Shown here: in pieces, positions 1,022-12,332 of the stretch
Layout of the letters: each line of letters starts with the position of its first letter
Numbering within the stretch: the stretch's first letter is position 1
UHGV virus genome: UHGV-0079174
Direction: 5' to 3' (one strand)
Origin: a virus
DNA length: 12,456 nucleotides
Notes under the pieces: model-generated
What the model saw: the letters and a program-made list of their open reading frames with translations, nothing else
Database searches by the model: none
Told to the model about the DNA's origin: nothing
Made by a program: the position numbers and the translations under genes

Positions 1022-1061
1022 TGCTATGCCTGTAAATAACAGGACATAAACAGGTTAGTAC

Positions 1062-1309
1062 CTATGCAATTTAACGGTATTTTTCCAAGTATCTATGCAA
1101 TCCTACACAGATTCTATACAGTATCGACATAGCCCCTTTTTATCATAACTTATTGAAATATATAGAGAATCTGTAAATCCTCTTTTCAGGGTAAACTGTA
1201 TCGTGTTAGTCGTTCCTCTCTCGACACTACATACAGTGCTATATACAGGACTATATAACGGTGTCTATGCAGTTGGTCACTATCAATATTCCCTTAAAGT
1301 GACTATCAA
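1062..1309. repeat. Cluster of short direct repeats (iteron-like) in non-coding DNA
   Basis: CTATGCAAT at 1062-1070 and 1093-1101 (31 bp period); CTATGCAG at 1265-1272; GT(C/G)ACTATCAA at 1276-1286 and 1299-1309 (23 bp period). No ORF in the supplied track in this stretch. Confidence 0.4.
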
Positions 1310-1457
1310 GCTACTTAATAGTTTCCTATATGAAAGTTAGGAGGCGATAGTTATAGTTCCTTCGTAGTTCCCCTTAAAAAATCACTTAGAGACATCTTAA
1401 TCTATATGCAGATTTCACGTAGAACACGATTAGTGCGTAAAACAGCTATTATGTTAA

Positions 1458-1486
1458 AAACACACTGTGTTTATATCAGTACTGAT
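1458..1486. promoter_or_regulatory. Two adjacent palindromes, operator-like
   Basis: AAACACA-C-TGTGTTT (1458-1472, 7-bp arms) and a perfect 12-bp palindrome ATCAGTACTGAT (1475-1486), 2 bp apart. Confidence 0.3.
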
Positions 1487-1637
1487 TTATAAGGGTTTTG
1501 TGTATTGGCTGATAAGAGGCTATACAGCACCTTGAGAGCATGTCTTATAAGTCATTGACACATAAGGTCACAGAAGTTTGTAGCTGTTACAGAGAAAACT
1601 GGATAGGACTTCACAGAATTATAAAATGTTACAGCTA

Positions 1638-1665
1638 TTGATAGATGAAATCTTCTTGATAGATG
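1638..1665. repeat. Exact 10-bp direct repeat TTGATAGATG x2
   Basis: Copies at 1638-1647 and 1656-1665, 18 bp period, in non-coding DNA. Confidence 0.4.
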
Positions 1666-1916
1666 CTTTGAAGTGTGGTTAAGGTTTCTTGAGGTGGAGT
1701 TAACAGATGCCATGAAGAAAGTCAATAATTGGTTATAGATATTTTAACTGCTTTTGCAAAGGGGGGAGCTATATCGTGAATCTGGGGCACTTAACAGCCA
1801 TCAATTGAGTGTAGATATTTTTGAAGATTATCGGTGAAGGGGAATGTAGAGGGGTTACTACGATATTTATAAAAATTTTCAGACTCTGAAAAGTTACTGT
1901 ACAGATTTTATACAAA

Positions 1917-1940
1917 CTAAAAAGGACTCCCGAAAGAGTC
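1917..1940 (-). terminator. Candidate intrinsic terminator on the minus strand
   Basis: Stem GGACTC (1923-1928) / GAGTCC (1935-1940), 6-nt loop. On the minus strand the hairpin is followed by TTTTAGTTTGT. No T-tract follows it on the plus strand. Confidence 0.3.
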
Positions 1941-1975
1941 CCTATAAGTCGATTTTTAACGTGGCTACGACAATC

Positions 1976-2029
1976 CACCCATACCGCACCAAACCTTACC
2001 CCACCGAACCGCACCCTACACGACCTTAC
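1976..2029. repeat. C-rich (plus strand) / G-rich (minus strand) imperfect tandem repeat
   Basis: CCGCACC occurs twice and CCTTACC twice within about 55 bp (roughly CACC..ACCGCACC..CCTTACC repeated). Compositionally unlike the flanking AT-rich DNA. Confidence 0.3.
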
Positions 2030-2550
2030 CTCGCCGGACACTGCCATAGAGAGTGTGCTTGGTTGCTTTGGAAGTAAACCTAGTACAGTAAGCCATTATA
2101 CATATCGAGATAGTAACGTCAAGAAACTTTTAACAGGAGGGGTTCCTATGGTCACATATTCCCTCTCTTCCCACTAAGTAAGTCTTAGCAGCACCTAAGC
2201 AACAATTGACTAACAGGTTCGGTAGAGTCTATCTCATAGGTCAACTTCATAAACTCAGAGTTAAGTTACCTTGAAAGATTCTACCAAGAAACTACACAGG
2301 TGTTATTTAGTCTGACTGTGAAGGGATATTTAACGGGAGGAGAGATACGATATAACCCGAAGGGAGAGTATCATCTTAACAATTATCTTAAGAATAAAAC
2401 TGAAAAGTTCTTAACAGATGACTACCTAGAAAGAAGGGAACGATAAGACCAGAGGTAGTGACCTTGTTAAACAGGCTGTTTCAAAGCTCTTAAGAGTCTG
2501 TTAAGTAAGGGCTATGTGAACAATCTTACCATTTTGTCAATGCTTTTGTC

Positions 2551-2596
2551 TTTAGCAAAAAGTGCTAAACTTAACAAAAAGCACTAAATGCTAAAG
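2551..2596. promoter_or_regulatory. Repeat and inverted-repeat cluster just upstream of the methyltransferase gene
   Basis: TTTAGCA (2551-2557) / TGCTAAA (2563-2569) inverted repeat; 15-mers CAAAAAGTGCTAAAC (2556-2570) and CAAAAAGCACTAAAT (2575-2589); AAATGCTAAAG at 2586-2596 recurs at 3716-3726, and a related AAATGCTA lies in the promoter spacer at 4181-4188. Confidence 0.3.
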
Positions 2597-2634
2597 AGAC
2601 GATTAAGAAATATACTAAGAGGGGCGCTTCGCTT

Positions 2635-3303
2635 GTGTCACATCCAATAATCAATGTTGGTCGTTATCATGGTGGTTCTGATGACTGGCGTACACCGTAT
2701 CGTTTATTTCATAATCTGCATCGTGAGTTTAACTTCAGTCTAGATGGCGCTGCAACTGAGCATGACGCATTGTTGCCACGGTTCACCGATGATATTCACA
2801 ATCAATCATGGGTTGGTGAACGGGTCTTCGTTAACCCGCCGTTTAGCATGGCTGAAAAGTTCCTCTTAAAAGCCCCTGAAGCTGATGTGTGTGTATGTCT
2901 GGTTCCGCTCAGGTCAAAGACAACTTACTGGCTTCGGTGTGTATATACAAACCCCTTCCTGCATGAGATTCGAACGTTGCACCGAGCAGTCAAATACCTT
3001 CCACCAGCAGGAAAGAGAGGTGTTGTAGTGCGCTCACCGTTTCCAAGTTGCGTTTTGATATACAGGAACACACCCCGCAAACCGAAAGTTGAAGTTACCC
3101 AGACAATCTATTGTGGTGACACAATGCTTTTACTTGCCGTGGTTAACAGGGGTGGTTTACGTGGAAGACCTCATATGCACAATGCACAGACGCTTGACAG
3201 GTTGATTAAAATGTATGACCAAGGGCAACCCATCAAGAGCATCGCAGAATCGCTAAGAATGCCTCTAAGCACCACTTACAGGATTGTTCAAAGGTTGGGC
3301 TGA
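2635..3303 (+). CDS. Phage Dam-family DNA N6-adenine methyltransferase with C-terminal helix-turn-helix extension
   Basis: 222-aa ORF, GTG start 9 nt after AAGAGGGG. N-terminal DDWRTP, then VFVNPPFS (N/DPPY/F-type catalytic motif) and LVPLRSKTTYW...SPFPS, the pattern of phage Dam-type orphan methyltransferases. The last ~40 aa (GQPIKSIAESLRMPLSTTYRIVQRLG) read as a resolvase/Hin-type HTH. Family assignment is from motif memory, not a search. Confidence 0.7.
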   Translation: MSHPIINVGRYHGGSDDWRTPYRLFHNLHREFNFSLDGAATEHDALLPRFTDDIHNQSWVGERVFVNPPFSMAEKFLLKAPEADVCVCLVPLRSKTTYWLRCVYTNPFLHEIRTLHRAVKYLPPAGKRGVVVRSPFPSCVLIYRNTPRKPKVEVTQTIYCGDTMLLLAVVNRGGLRGRPHMHNAQTLDRLIKMYDQGQPIKSIAESLRMPLSTTYRIVQRLG

Positions 3304-3350
3304 AGTTCTCATATAGAGCACTGATTACGAGAATGTTAAAGATGCGATTT

Positions 3351-3541
3351 CCCCTTTCTGGGGTTATTCGCTTTTTACTGGAAGGGTTATTTTACAGAGG
3401 TTTTTCAAACCCCCTCAATAATAGAAACGAGCAACAAACGAAGAGCGAGAAATAAAAATATTGAGACTGGTGAACGGGGGTCTGTAAAGATTGTTTAAGA
3501 AGTCGGTTAAGAAGGTGGCTCTCCCTGTCTGGGGTTATCGC
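3351..3541. repeat. Direct repeat CCCT..TCTGGGGTTAT(T)CGC x2, about 171 bp apart
   Basis: CCCCTTTCTGGGGTTATTCGC (3351-3371) and CTCCCTGTCTGGGGTTATCGCC (3522-3541), in DNA with no ORF in the supplied track. Confidence 0.35.
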
Positions 3542-3768
3542 CTTGTGTCTTAGTGAGTCTTGAAAGTTCTCTGTGAAGAGTCTTGTCAGTCCTTTATATT
3601 GGCTAATTACAACTCATTGAAAAAATAAGCATTTTTAGAAATTACTGTCAGAGGGGTGAATACTTGATAGATACAGCTTTCCGGTTCTGTCAAGCTATTT
3701 ATTAATGGATAGCACAAAATGCTAAAGATACCCCTATACCATCACGTACAGGGGGTTTTGAAGGGAGT

Positions 3769-4026
3769 TTAACGGGGTTCTGTGTGGTCGTTATCCTTAA
3801 GGTCAAGCGTCCATGTACGACCGAACAGTTTAAAGACAACAAGCACTCTGACGAGGACGTAGCGAAGTAGCAGACCTGCAATCAGCCCAACACCTCCACC
3901 AGCCCATACATCAGGTGACCCCAGCTCAGGAGGGAGATTTACCATTAGTTTTCCTTGTAAGACGCTCTCAATCGCATTCTGACACAAAAAAGTACCTGAC
4001 CTTATATGTTGACCTGAAGAGGCCAT
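3769..4026 (-). CDS. Hypothetical small protein with one hydrophobic segment; coding status uncertain
   Basis: 85-aa minus-strand ORF with hydrophobic stretch GGGVGLIAGLLLRYVLVRVLVVF. A candidate minus-strand promoter lies upstream (4126-4155). Weak ribosome-binding site. Confidence 0.3.
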   Translation of the reverse strand: MASSGQHIRSGTFLCQNAIESVLQGKLMVNLPPELGSPDVWAGGGVGLIAGLLLRYVLVRVLVVFKLFGRTWTLDLKDNDHTEPR

Positions 4027-4125
4027 TTAACTCGTTACAGAGCGATTGAAGAGGTCTGTGTGCAATGCAATAACCATGCGGCCATTCTCATAGCCACGCC
4101 TCATATTTTACTCTCCCATAAACCC

Positions 4126-4155
4126 ATTATACCACAGATGTTAATAAAATGTTAA
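4126..4155 (-). promoter_or_regulatory. Candidate sigma70-type promoter on the minus strand, divergent from the plus-strand promoter
   Basis: On the minus strand: -35 TTAACA (plus 4150-4155), 18-bp spacer, -10 TATAAT (plus 4126-4131). Confidence 0.3.
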
Positions 4156-4161
4156 AAATGC

Positions 4162-4190
4162 TTGACATTAGTCTTTGAAAATGCTAGTAT
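4162..4190 (+). promoter_or_regulatory. Sigma70-type promoter (first of two matching promoters)
   Basis: -35 TTGACA (4162-4167), 17-bp spacer, -10 TAGTAT (4185-4190), followed by TGTATATATAGG (4191-4202), which is identical to the 12-mer after the second promoter. First gene starts 51 nt downstream. Confidence 0.55.
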
Positions 4191-4240
4191 TGTATATATA
4201 GGTTAACACAGAATTAACAATTATAAGGACTAGCTTATGA

Positions 4241-5078: not shown

Positions 5079-5464
5079 TGTATGACTTTTATAAACATCG
5101 TGACCATTTGGTAAGATTTGACGGTAAAGTCTGGAAAGACGTAACACAAACCAATAAACCCAAGTTTACCCACCAGCAATTAGCCTCAAGATTTGATATC
5201 TGGACTGAAGCACAAAAAGATAATGGTGATTTCGAGTTTATCAGAGGTTTTGATTATTCTTACGAAGACGACCTTAAAGACGCCATTAAATTAATTGAGA
5301 ACTTCAACTCTATTAAAAATGGTGACAAGCACAAAGCCAACGGTAACAGATACGATAAAGATTTAATCATTGATGCAATCACCAAAGGACAATCACAAAG
5401 TTATATTTCTGAGAAATACGGCTTATCACGTAGTCAATACTACAAGATTAAAGCGTCTGTGTAA
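5078..5464 (+). CDS. Hypothetical protein with C-terminal helix-turn-helix
   Basis: 128-aa ORF. Its ATG overlaps the upstream stop (TAATG at 5076-5080), indicating translational coupling. C-terminal DAITKGQSQSYISEKYGLSRSQYYKIK is the same resolvase-type HTH flavour as the methyltransferase C-terminus. Confidence 0.6.
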   Translation: MYDFYKHRDHLVRFDGKVWKDVTQTNKPKFTHQQLASRFDIWTEAQKDNGDFEFIRGFDYSYEDDLKDAIKLIENFNSIKNGDKHKANGNRYDKDLIIDAITKGQSQSYISEKYGLSRSQYYKIKASV

Positions 5465-6270: not shown

Positions 6271-6378
6271 CAGCTTTTAAAAAGCATACATGGCAAACGC
6301 TTTTAAGTCTCTTCTAAGTTCGTAGGCTGTCAGGTGTGCTTTTTAAAAACTGAATATTACTTAGAAGAGGAAAATGAA

Positions 6379-10808: not shown

Positions 10809-12332
10809 CTATATGATAACCTCATCAACATCTATTAAACCCCTCTCAGTGACTTCAGAAAGCGACTGTATAGCCTCTGTAACGTCCTCTGAGGGGTTTT
10901 CTGTTATTGATAGGTCAATTACCTTACCGTTGTGAAAACTTACTTTACAGCGACGTTTAGCAGTATTTAAAACGACCTCTTTAACAGCACTTTTGATTAT
11001 CAGTTGTGCTTCAATCCTTCCCGCCTTTGTAGTCAAGTCACAATCAGACAAACAACCAACATCAATAGATTTAAGGCGTTGTGTCTCCTTCTCGATATCC
11101 GCATCAACCTGTGATAGCTCACCTTTTAACTGCTTTAGTTTGATGGTAATAGCTGACAAATCTTCAATTTCAAGTGATAGCTGTACCAGCTTTTCAATAT
11201 TGCTTGAGATGTGTTCACGGTGTAGCTTCAGCGTATCTATGGTATTCGTCATATCGCTATCAAATCGGTCAAGACGAGATAGCAGGGTAAGTAATGTACC
11301 ATCAGTTTGCTTACGTGAAAGTCCTTTAGCACTACAACGGTTTTCATTACGAAGGGGACAACGATAAATCCCGCTTCTTGTATCGCTAAAGCCTGTGATA
11401 ATCAAAGCATGACCACATTCAGAACAACGGATAACACCTTTGAAAAGATTCACAGCCATTGGCTTATCTGAAGCAGGTTTTCTACCGTAACGAGAATATG
11501 ATAGTTGTTGAACTTTGTAGAATGTTGTTTCATCTATAATTGCAGGATAATAACCAGCTATCTCCTCACAGCCTTTAGGTGTGAAGTAACCAATTACAGA
11601 GCGATTTTTCAGAAGGTCTTGTACTGAGGTTTGACCAAATGAACCCGCTTTATATTGGTTAAGCGTCTGGTGACCTTCATCATTAAGAGTCCTGACAATC
11701 TCCCAGATAGACTTACCCTCTAACCGTAGCTGAAAGCACCTCTTCACAGTCTCCACTTTCTCAGGGATTACAGAGAAGCTTTTACGGTCATCATTAAGCT
11801 TAAGCCATGCAGGACAACGTTTAGAAATCTTGATACCTTCAGAGATGAGTTCTTTTTTACGGTTCCATGCAGCTTGTATACGCTCAGACTTCCTCAAACT
11901 CTCCTCATGCGACCGCTGCATTATCAGAATGCTTTTAATCAGAGCTAACGGGTCTTTAAGAGATTCTCGTGTGTAATGTTCACCATCGGACAAGGTGACC
12001 ACATCTACACCAGAGCGAAGAATGTTTCTGAGTAGCTCACTTGCTTGGTCTACATCTTGACGTGACAGACGGTCAAGAGATTCTATCAAGAGCGTATCAC
12101 CAGCTTTAACAAGCCCTTTCTCGATAGCGGTTAAAAAGTCACCTAAGCCACCTTTCAAGTGCTTACCAGTGAACCCACTCACCCCCAAATCACGGAAGGA
12201 TAAATCTTGGTCAAGGTAGTACTCAGGATGAGCCTTAAGCCAGTCATTAACCATCTTAGACTGTCTGCGTAGTGAGTCGCCTTTGGCTTGTCGCTCAGAA
12301 CTGAATCTGATGTAGCTGATTACACGTTTCAT
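10809..12332 (-). CDS. Large serine recombinase (probable integrase of the element)
   Basis: 507-aa ORF. N-terminal resolvase-type catalytic domain with YIRFSSERQ (nucleophile-serine motif, compare YIRVSTEEQ), a Cys-rich zinc-ribbon-like segment CSECGH...YRCPLRNENRC, and a C-terminal coiled-coil region. This is the domain order of phage-type large serine integrases. Confidence 0.85.
   Translation of the reverse strand: MKRVISYIRFSSERQAKGDSLRRQSKMVNDWLKAHPEYYLDQDLSFRDLGVSGFTGKHLKGGLGDFLTAIEKGLVKAGDTLLIESLDRLSRQDVDQASELLRNILRSGVDVVTLSDGEHYTRESLKDPLALIKSILIMQRSHEESLRKSERIQAAWNRKKELISEGIKISKRCPAWLKLNDDRKSFSVIPEKVETVKRCFQLRLEGKSIWEIVRTLNDEGHQTLNQYKAGSFGQTSVQDLLKNRSVIGYFTPKGCEEIAGYYPAIIDETTFYKVQQLSYSRYGRKPASDKPMAVNLFKGVIRCSECGHALIITGFSDTRSGIYRCPLRNENRCSAKGLSRKQTDGTLLTLLSRLDRFDSDMTNTIDTLKLHREHISSNIEKLVQLSLEIEDLSAITIKLKQLKGELSQVDADIEKETQRLKSIDVGCLSDCDLTTKAGRIEAQLIIKSAVKEVVLNTAKRRCKVSFHNGKVIDLSITENPSEDVTEAIQSLSEVTERGLIDVDEVII

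Follow-up and report, generated by a model that had tools for sequence, protein, structure and literature searches.

A predicted orphan VIPR guide RNA gene in the non-coding left arm of a yecE-inserted phage satellite

Introduction

The closest described relative of the locus reported here is the VIPR system, outlined in two 2026 preprints (bioRxiv 10.64898/2026.04.26.720920 and 10.64898/2026.04.26.720927). In these preprints, Vipr is described as a small RAMP-fold protein that polymerises along a guide RNA, the vrRNA. The vrRNA comprises 9-16 GGY/NN repeats and a structured tail, which in the SUSP1 clade is a pseudoknot, and in coding targets the skipped base tends to fall on codon position 3 (bioRxiv 10.64898/2026.04.26.720920). 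According to the same sources, Vipr hides GGY and presents NN, which pairs with double-stranded DNA such that every third target base is skipped, and Vipr binding silences transcription. The mature vrRNA is said to be shorter than 100 nucleotides (nt), and some satellites carry vrRNAs of their own that are aimed at related satellites. The subject of the present analysis is positions 1022-2634 of a 12,456-nt stretch of viral DNA (UHGV-0079174, hereafter the window). This gene-free region very probably forms the left, non-coding arm of a satellite whose helpers are Felixounavirus/SUSP1-type phages, which it parasitises, and its sole decodable gene would be a minus-strand orphan vrRNA.

A VIPR guide RNA on the SUSP1 satellite is already reported in outline in the 2026 preprints and is here rediscovered from raw sequence. 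What is added is the base-level anatomy of the satellite's orphan guide gene. A guide directed at host repetitive extragenic palindromic (REP) elements may be new, and the concentration of rival guides on the non-coding arm appears to be new.

Results

A predicted vrRNA gene on the minus strand

The strongest signal in the stretch is a C-rich block that reads on the minus strand as GGT every 5 nt, with 9 of 10 triplets in phase; no such array occurred in 20 shuffles of the whole Felix O1 genome. Its sequence can be read as that of a gene for a VIPR guide RNA, in which a promoter is followed by the array, a pseudoknot tail and a terminator. The original prediction had held that the function of the stretch could not be read from sequence, which does not apply to this block. 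The arm and the parts of the gene are as follows.

1022..2634, no strand assigned: conserved non-coding left arm, with matches in 551 of 5426 complete E. coli genomes and no coding signal
2095..2122, minus strand: predicted sigma-70-type promoter (TTGACG, 16 nt, TATAAT; 11 of 12 consensus positions matched)
1981..2045, minus strand: vrRNA guide array of 13 GGY-NN pentamers, from sequence and alignment
1948..1980, minus strand: 3' tail, an H-type pseudoknot with stems S1, GTGG (1978..1975)/CCAC (1964..1961), and S2, GTCG (1971..1968)/CGAC (1951..1948)
1915..1943, minus strand: predicted Rho-independent terminator, GGGACTC-TTTC-GGGAGTCC followed by TTTTT

The vrRNA probably starts near position 2088. 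Alignment of six divergent islands shows that the promoter position is kept while the spacer and hexamers vary, that GGT is kept while NN varies, and that insertions and deletions in the array are multiples of 5. Neither the tail nor the terminator varies among the six islands. The 13 triplets comprise nine GGT, two GGC and two TGT, and the guide bases read, in order, AG CC GA AA CG AG GC TC GG AA TT GC AT. The terminator is the sole terminator-like site in 900-2750; in two related islands (L160 and L161) a different hairpin occupies its position.

The interleaved S1/S2 pairing is found in 56 of 56 units compared, in a permissive search of which 25% of shuffled tails pass the 5-bp version. S1 covaries over the tail types of these units (GTAG/CTAC in 24, GTGG/CCAC in 13 and AAGG/CCTT in 10), and S2 occurs in at least four sequence types, G-U wobble included. 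The satellite's S1 and S2 stand in register with those of the phage tails. Within the stretch, similarity to phage DNA is limited to 1948-2048, which matches about 106 Felixounavirus records at 75-80% in unannotated intergenic DNA. None of PHROG scan, tblastn and six-frame profile search detected a Vipr homologue in the window, so the gene appears to be an orphan that needs a helper protein in trans. Thus, the satellite gene shows the pentamer tract, the 3' tail and the one-nucleotide-skip targets of a vrRNA, and it has no associated Vipr of its own.

The element carrying the arm

Several E. coli chromosomes match the window at 100% identity, and most of it is present in 14 genomes, as an island of about 12.3 kb flanked by the two halves of yecE. 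Related islands are inserted in yecE or mdtG, or adjoin yciI or ymdF. The tape-measure and baseplate proteins annotated in the window are WP_096972664.1 and WP_096972663.1. Fig. S14 of the bioRxiv VIPR preprint uses the same two accessions under the label "VIPR targeted satellite". Because these proteins are shared, the window is taken to be the SUSP1 satellite of the 2026 preprints, and the C-rich block one of its vrRNA genes. The best relatives of the tape-measure protein are Felixounavirus proteins at about 29% amino-acid identity, and the Dit-like baseplate gene is 94% identical to Felixounavirus at the nucleotide level. The window also encodes a large serine recombinase and several unknown proteins; no recognisable replication gene, capsid or terminase was found among its proteins.

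Arrays in phages and the partner protein

Felixounavirus loci carry 2-5 array-plus-tail units apiece, in sense orientation and distributed over two intergenic sites in the neighbourhood of the ligase gene. Of the 514 steps between GGT triplets in 56 arrays, 328 measure 5 nt; the others, 85 of them 10 nt, are mostly multiples of 5. Degenerate triplets in the 56 units are GGC, TGT or AGT, and NN is close to random. When viral contigs were scanned for GGT triplets, seven of them in phase, many unrelated phages emerged in which non-coding arrays with variable NN lie beside long open reading frames (ORFs), 98 on the same strand and 12 on the opposite one. Arrays of 8-26 GGT-NN units are widespread in viral loci from unrelated contigs (L033-L152, for example L042, L045, L067, L136 and L152), and contigs of 189 and 234 kb are among those that carry them. 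Often a locus has several arrays, which fill gaps between same-strand genes and stop just before a ribosome-binding site.

A protein of family phrog_4652 is encoded near the arrays, within flanks of a few kb, in 27 of 58 diverse viral loci and always on the array strand; the Felixounavirus member (L001:2336-2923) lies between the two array sites. In Pfam, the family yields nothing beyond a faint hint of RAMP. A profile built from 40 homologues matched PDB entry 36pp, "SUSP1 Vipr protein", with an E value of 1.7e-80, and the AlphaFold model of the protein is confident (pLDDT 94). Literature searches on Felixounavirus satellites, yecE islands and GGU repeats found nothing, and the VIPR preprints were reached only through the PDB match. 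Felix O1 itself has a single degenerate array at the homologous site (L016 7600-7960; Felix O1 57631-57914). As this type phage is also without the vipr and vap genes of E. coli Felixounaviruses, most of the system seems to have been lost from it.

Several earlier models of the array were ruled out by the decodable NN target code: a mimic of the helper pac site or origin, an origin of R-loop type, a G-quadruplex, Rho loading on the C-rich strand and binding by a TRAP-like ring. A sponge for tRNA CCA ends or for anti-Shine-Dalgarno sequences was likewise discarded, NN being without complementary enrichment.

VIPR targets predicted in the window

Guides were scored by replacing each GGY with one free base and counting NN matches on both strands, with 300 shuffled guides as the control. 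About 20 of 49 guides from phages and rival satellites have a site in the window that no more than one shuffle in 300 equals, among them 20/20 at 5125-5154, 22/24 at 11647-11682 and 19/20 at 6302-6331. The skipped base is codon position 3 in 8 of the 12 coding targets of the window. Sites within the stretch are listed here.

1435..1467, minus strand: predicted target shared by the L009 and L011 vrRNAs, both from rival satellites (19/22 and 20/22 NN; 0 of 300 shuffles)
1313..1339, minus strand: predicted target of Felixounavirus vrRNA L001_3162 (16/18 NN; 1 of 300 shuffles)
2405..2443, plus strand: predicted target of phage vrRNA L032_8660 (22/26 NN; 0 of 300 shuffles), inside the inverted repeats of module E
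1244..1267, plus strand: marginal target of the vrRNA of rival satellite L010 (14/16; 3 of 300 shuffles)
1525-1548, plus strand: marginal target of the vrRNA of rival satellite L026 (14/16; 2 of 300 shuffles)
1961-1990, minus strand: marginal target of phage guide L031_13679 (16/20; 6 of 300 shuffles), at the array-tail junction of the satellite vrRNA gene

The 1435-1467 target lies in module B1 of the arm (described below) and overlaps the palindrome at 1458-1472; L009 and L011 are themselves without B1. All four satellite-borne guides whose best window site falls inside the stretch are aimed between 1244 and 1548. That guides of helpers and rivals are aimed at the arm suggests that it matters for satellite expression or propagation. 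For L031_13679 the site listed is its best one in the window, which weakly hints that the guide gene of the satellite may itself be a phage target.

The satellite guide and host REP elements

Under the one-nucleotide skip, the satellite's own guide reads as the target nAGnCCnGAnAAnCGnAGnGCnTCnGGnAAnTTnGCnAT. Its best site in the window scores 14/20, which is not significant, and related islands (12 partial, 5 full) and viral contigs likewise gave no target. Exact matching against a single genome from each species returned two sites, one in a Pseudocitrobacter metagenome-assembled genome and one in Escherichia whittamii. Both match at 24/24 over the 12 scored units, or 26/26 when the 13th unit (AG) is read by eye. 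Both are REP elements of the form GTAG GCCTGATAAGCGTAGCGCATCAGGC AATTTTGCGAT, and the REP target sequence of the guide is GCCTGATAAGCGTAGCGCATCAGGCAATTTTGCGAT. Among E. coli sites, agreement is 25/26 at the pitA-uspB REP (scored 23/24, the 13th unit again by eye) and 23/26 (scored 21/24) at the REP that separates torZ from cmoB, 2.6 kb left of the island. A 40-mer of the REP target is present in 5426 of 5426 E. coli genomes, at a median of at least 22 places per genome. For the guides of other satellites, agreement with REP stays at chance level.

All 26 guide bases are retained in L160 and L161 despite their different tail and terminator, and L162 retains them minus two units. The satellite vrRNA gene is found in 153 E. 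coli genomes, 22 at 99% identity or more to the present allele, 2 at 95-99% and 47 at 90-95%, the last band being the source of L160 and L161. By extrapolation from three sequenced examples, about 70 of the 153 genomes would fall within the identity bands of the REP-matching allele. The accessible preprint text makes no mention of REP, host targets or decoys.

It is quite possible, if somewhat short of probable, that the guide is programmed against a multicopy host sequence, a Y-type REP/BIME (bacterial interspersed mosaic element), rather than against a competing mobile element. Loaded with helper Vipr, it would then occupy dozens of chromosomal sites, either as a sink that disarms the helper's anti-satellite VIPR or as a manipulation of the host chromosome.

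Coding status and short motifs

The stretch is gene-free, as originally predicted. It contains no ORF of 100 amino acids (aa) or more, and each of the six frames is interrupted by stop codons. Counted by codon phase, the substitutions that separate five relatives number 28/34/30, which is no codon pattern. The largest ORF (92 aa, minus strand, 1769..2047) crosses the G-rich pentamer array and is spurious, again in agreement with the earlier judgement. Small ORFs of 45-92 aa were rejected as genes on account of the stops in every frame and the lack of codon-phase bias. The short motifs named in the original prediction were all recovered at their positions, and for most of the short repeats the number of copies is modestly improbable as a chance outcome.

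1062 and 1093: two copies of CTATGCAAT (0.12 expected)
1638 and 1656: two copies of TTGATAGATG (0.04 expected)
1279 and 1302: two copies of ACTATCAA, with four further copies elsewhere in the window
2374-2495: all four copies of TCTTAASA, that is TCTTAA(C/G)A, absent from the rest of the 12.4 kb
1458-1472: palindrome AAACACACTGTGTTT, read directly
1475-1486: palindrome ATCAGTACTGAT, read directly

Conservation in related islands, by which the earlier note proposed to judge the repeats, is mixed: the TTGATAGATG pair and the TCTTAA sites are conserved, and the second CTATGCAAT copy and the first ACTATCAA copy are not. The short repeats are mostly arms of inverted repeats or variable mosaic junctions and do not behave as the iterons that had been proposed. 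An Rfam covariance search of the whole window gave no match at E values up to 1, and a scan for tRNA and tmRNA found none in the window.

Conserved modules of the arm

Comparison by blastn with 12 related islands shows the arm to be a mosaic of modules.

1026-1358: module A, in all relatives, with many invariant blocks
1359-1812: module B1, very conserved where it is present; in the other islands a gene for a small serine recombinase takes its place
1813-1914: module C, universal
1915-2127: module D, in about half of the relatives
2128-2553: module E, nearly universal

Module B1 has a mean identity of 82%, above that of the flanking genes, with long invariant blocks in the alignment and no codon periodicity. 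Folding of its 436-nt core gave z of about -0.4 against shuffles on both strands, no excess structure, and B1 was therefore dismissed as a structured RNA. The large structured RNA locus of the original prediction holds in part: the stretch is functional rather than junk DNA and includes an RNA locus, the vrRNA gene, and it is not one large structured RNA.

In many related islands (L005, L006, L008-L011 and L014) the place of B1 is taken by a serine recombinase of invertase size (182-189 aa) in either orientation, and L004 carries an inserted AP2/HNH gene. In L005 (1760-2603) the recombinase gene is flanked by a 20-nt inverted repeat with a CTATCAA motif, an arrangement that may be an invertible switch. 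This motif also forms inverted pairs in the window (1280/1303 versus 1638/1656). For B1 the switch idea is unsupported, the window having no recombinase there and L005 and L006 showing no inverted homologous segment when compared.

Module E and its right border contain three further features.

2376..2504, no strand assigned: nested inverted repeats of TCTTAA(C/G)A motifs, CTTAACAA/CTGTTAAG, TTAAG/CTTAA, CTTAACAG/CTTGTTAA and ACTACC/GGTAGT
2344..2372, no strand assigned: small hairpin with compensatory changes, GATAC/GTATC in four islands and GAACC/GGTTC in four
2549..2597, plus strand: imperfect 18-bp hairpin just upstream of the ribosome-binding site of the dam-type gene

In the RNAalifold consensus of eight islands, the pairs of 2376-2504 are mostly invariant and the energy is weak (-14.5 kcal/mol). 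Three pairs of the 2344-2372 hairpin are altered on both sides in the same eight islands; these changes may be a single event, because only two haplotypes are present. Other islands carry an unrelated hairpin in place of that at 2549-2597. Covariation in module E is thin, and its repeats and hairpins could act as DNA or as RNA. Taken together, modules A, B1, C and E are conserved non-coding DNA, for which a promoter or regulatory region, a helper-dependent origin and a packaging site are possible roles. No iteron array, initiator gene or helper-like packaging sequence was found in the rest of the stretch.

A conserved segment at 2134-2180, just upstream of the vrRNA promoter, reads AGGAGGGGTTCC(CC)TATGGTCACATAT... 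on the plus strand and comprises a strong ribosome-binding site and a nine-codon mini-ORF, MVTYSLSSH (MVTYPLSPA in relatives). It is kept in islands that are without the vrRNA gene and is duplicated in L003. In phage ECP2307 (L001 1500-1900 and 2930-3330) the vrRNA units are separated by leaders with palindromic motifs of the CTTAAGAG(T/G)CT type. The module E sequence CTCTTAAGAGTCTG (2487-2500), on the strand opposite to the vrRNA gene, resembles these leader motifs. The CTTAAGAG- and CTCTTAAGAGTCTG-type motifs possibly share a protein-binding site, perhaps for a vap accessory protein, and the likeness could be due to chance.

Neighbouring genes

To the right of the arm, 2635-3303 encodes a Dam-type N6-adenine methylase fused to a C-terminal resolvase-type helix-turn-helix (HTH) domain, HTH_7. 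The fusion is unusual and could bind recombinase-like sites of the non-coding arm. A second gene-poor stretch of about 940 bp follows at 3304-4240, with a 58-aa minus-strand ORF as its sole ORF. It holds two marginal-to-good VIPR targets, one for a rival satellite guide (3941-3967) and one for phage guides (4180-4212). On the left, a 277-aa gene at 188-1021 separates the arm from the left junction. The encoded protein is hydrophobic in its N-terminal part and continues into a long, charged tail that resembles a coiled coil; the gene is confined to the window and a few relatives such as L007. It looks like an inserted accessory gene, because the arm directly abuts the left junction in most related islands. 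In L002 a lambdoid prophage with a tyrosine integrase (16815-20457) lies directly right of the satellite, which places two mobile elements in tandem at yecE; L156 has the same arrangement.

Discussion

The arrangement described above very probably reflects a satellite that would make its vrRNA constitutively while having no Vipr of its own. On infection by the helper, phage Vipr subunits would polymerise along the GGY motifs of the satellite RNA and present NN. By the mechanism given in the preprints, NN would then pair with double-stranded DNA, the third target base being skipped, and transcription would be blocked. The remainder of the arm (modules A, B1, C and E) would be conserved cis-acting DNA.

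Several points weigh against this reading. The promoter, terminator and transcript ends of the vrRNA are predictions, and the mechanism is drawn from the text of two unreviewed preprints. A processing step has to be assumed, because the mature RNA is given there as shorter than 100 nt and the predicted primary transcript is about 170 nt. Loading of the satellite RNA into the helper's Vipr is presumed. In addition, the vrRNA accounts for only about 210 of the 1613 bases, which leaves 85% of the stretch.

In the origin, partition or operator array of the original prediction, the repeats would be iterons or operators to which a protein of the satellite or of the helper binds. No replication gene is recognisable in the island, which may therefore rely on a cis site, and the long invariant blocks of A and B1, which are without coding signal (and, for B1, without excess RNA structure), fit sites that act at the DNA level. 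The CTATCAA-type inverted pairs (1280/1303 and 1638/1656) share their motif with the 20-nt repeat that flanks the L005 recombinase, and the neighbouring Dam protein has a resolvase-type HTH. Nevertheless, we consider this explanation rather unlikely. No repeat family exceeds two to three copies, and several of the copies are unconserved in relatives. The stretch has neither an AT-rich unwinding region nor a skew change particular to it. The combination of at least three conserved, phased direct repeats with an AT-rich element or an initiator gene, by which an iteron origin would be recognised, was not found in it, and no replication origin or partition site could be shown. Similarity to helper-phage DNA is absent apart from the vrRNA unit, and the C-rich block is left unexplained. 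An origin or operator could still hold for A, B1 or E alongside the vrRNA gene.

The other two explanations fare worse. Decay of former genes, with the invertase or AP2/HNH genes of other islands as the intact state, would account for the intact small serine recombinase that stands in place of B1 in related islands and for the AP2/HNH gene of L004. It is very improbable, as B1 has no detectable DNA similarity to the cassettes that replace it, is more conserved than the flanking genes, which is the opposite of decay, and shows no residual codon phase in its substitutions. Finally, the array could be a track for another ring- or filament-forming factor of the TRAP type, an R-loop or G-quadruplex, or a plus-strand Rho loading site, rather than a guide. 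The triplets with two free bases between them, the C-poor, G-rich sense strand and the 5' leader positions would all suit such a factor. This is hardly credible now that the partner protein has been identified, its structure solved and the name Vipr given to it. Furthermore, under the one-nucleotide skip NN spells real satellite sequences with skipping in wobble phase, which no rival model predicts.

That the arm is a focus of rival-satellite VIPR attack marks its functional importance. If the REP match is functional, the VIPR conflict includes an undescribed move, in which the guide of an effector-less parasite redirects an enemy protein onto the host genome. Such a guide, if true, bears on the subversion of RNA-guided systems.

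Comparison with known systems

The satellite gene is closest to Type II VIPR of the SUSP1 clade. Its 13 pentamers lie inside the reported range of 9-16, its tail shares S1 GTGG/CCAC and loop sequences with the phage units L022_2701 and L023_496, and it has one-nucleotide-skip targets; the host element is the satellite named in that work (bioRxiv 10.64898/2026.04.26.720920). In contrast to the phage systems, the satellite gene stands singly, under a sigma-70 promoter and with a terminator of its own, rather than in a processed array, the satellite has no vipr or vap gene, and S2 is 4 bp (GTCG/CGAC) rather than 6 bp. The best targets of the guide are host REPs, whereas the preprint describes satellite vrRNAs as targeting related satellites.

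The CRISPR RNA and Cas7 backbone of Class 1 CRISPR systems resembles VIPR in having a helical RAMP-fold filament on a guide RNA with periodic interruption of pairing, as described in the VIPR preprints. In contrast, VIPR specificity is non-contiguous, using two of five guide bases and two of three target bases. VIPR is also without a repeat-spacer array, adaptation genes or a protospacer-adjacent motif, and its outcome is silencing and not cleavage.

RNA anti-CRISPRs (Racr) are RNAs of mobile elements that mimic CRISPR repeats and soak up Cas proteins. The satellite vrRNA is similarly a parasite RNA without its own protein that would be recognised by the RNA-binding machinery of the opponent. 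Unlike Racr, it retains a full, intact guide with perfect natural targets, and so might function as a guide in addition to any role as a sponge.

Among satellites, the island resembles P4, PICI/cf-PICI, PLE and PICMI in being small and integrated, with its own integrase and structural-gene homology to a specific helper. It differs from them in that the integrase is a large serine recombinase, that tape-measure and baseplate genes are present while capsid, terminase and recognisable replication genes are not, and that it carries a long non-coding arm with a VIPR guide.

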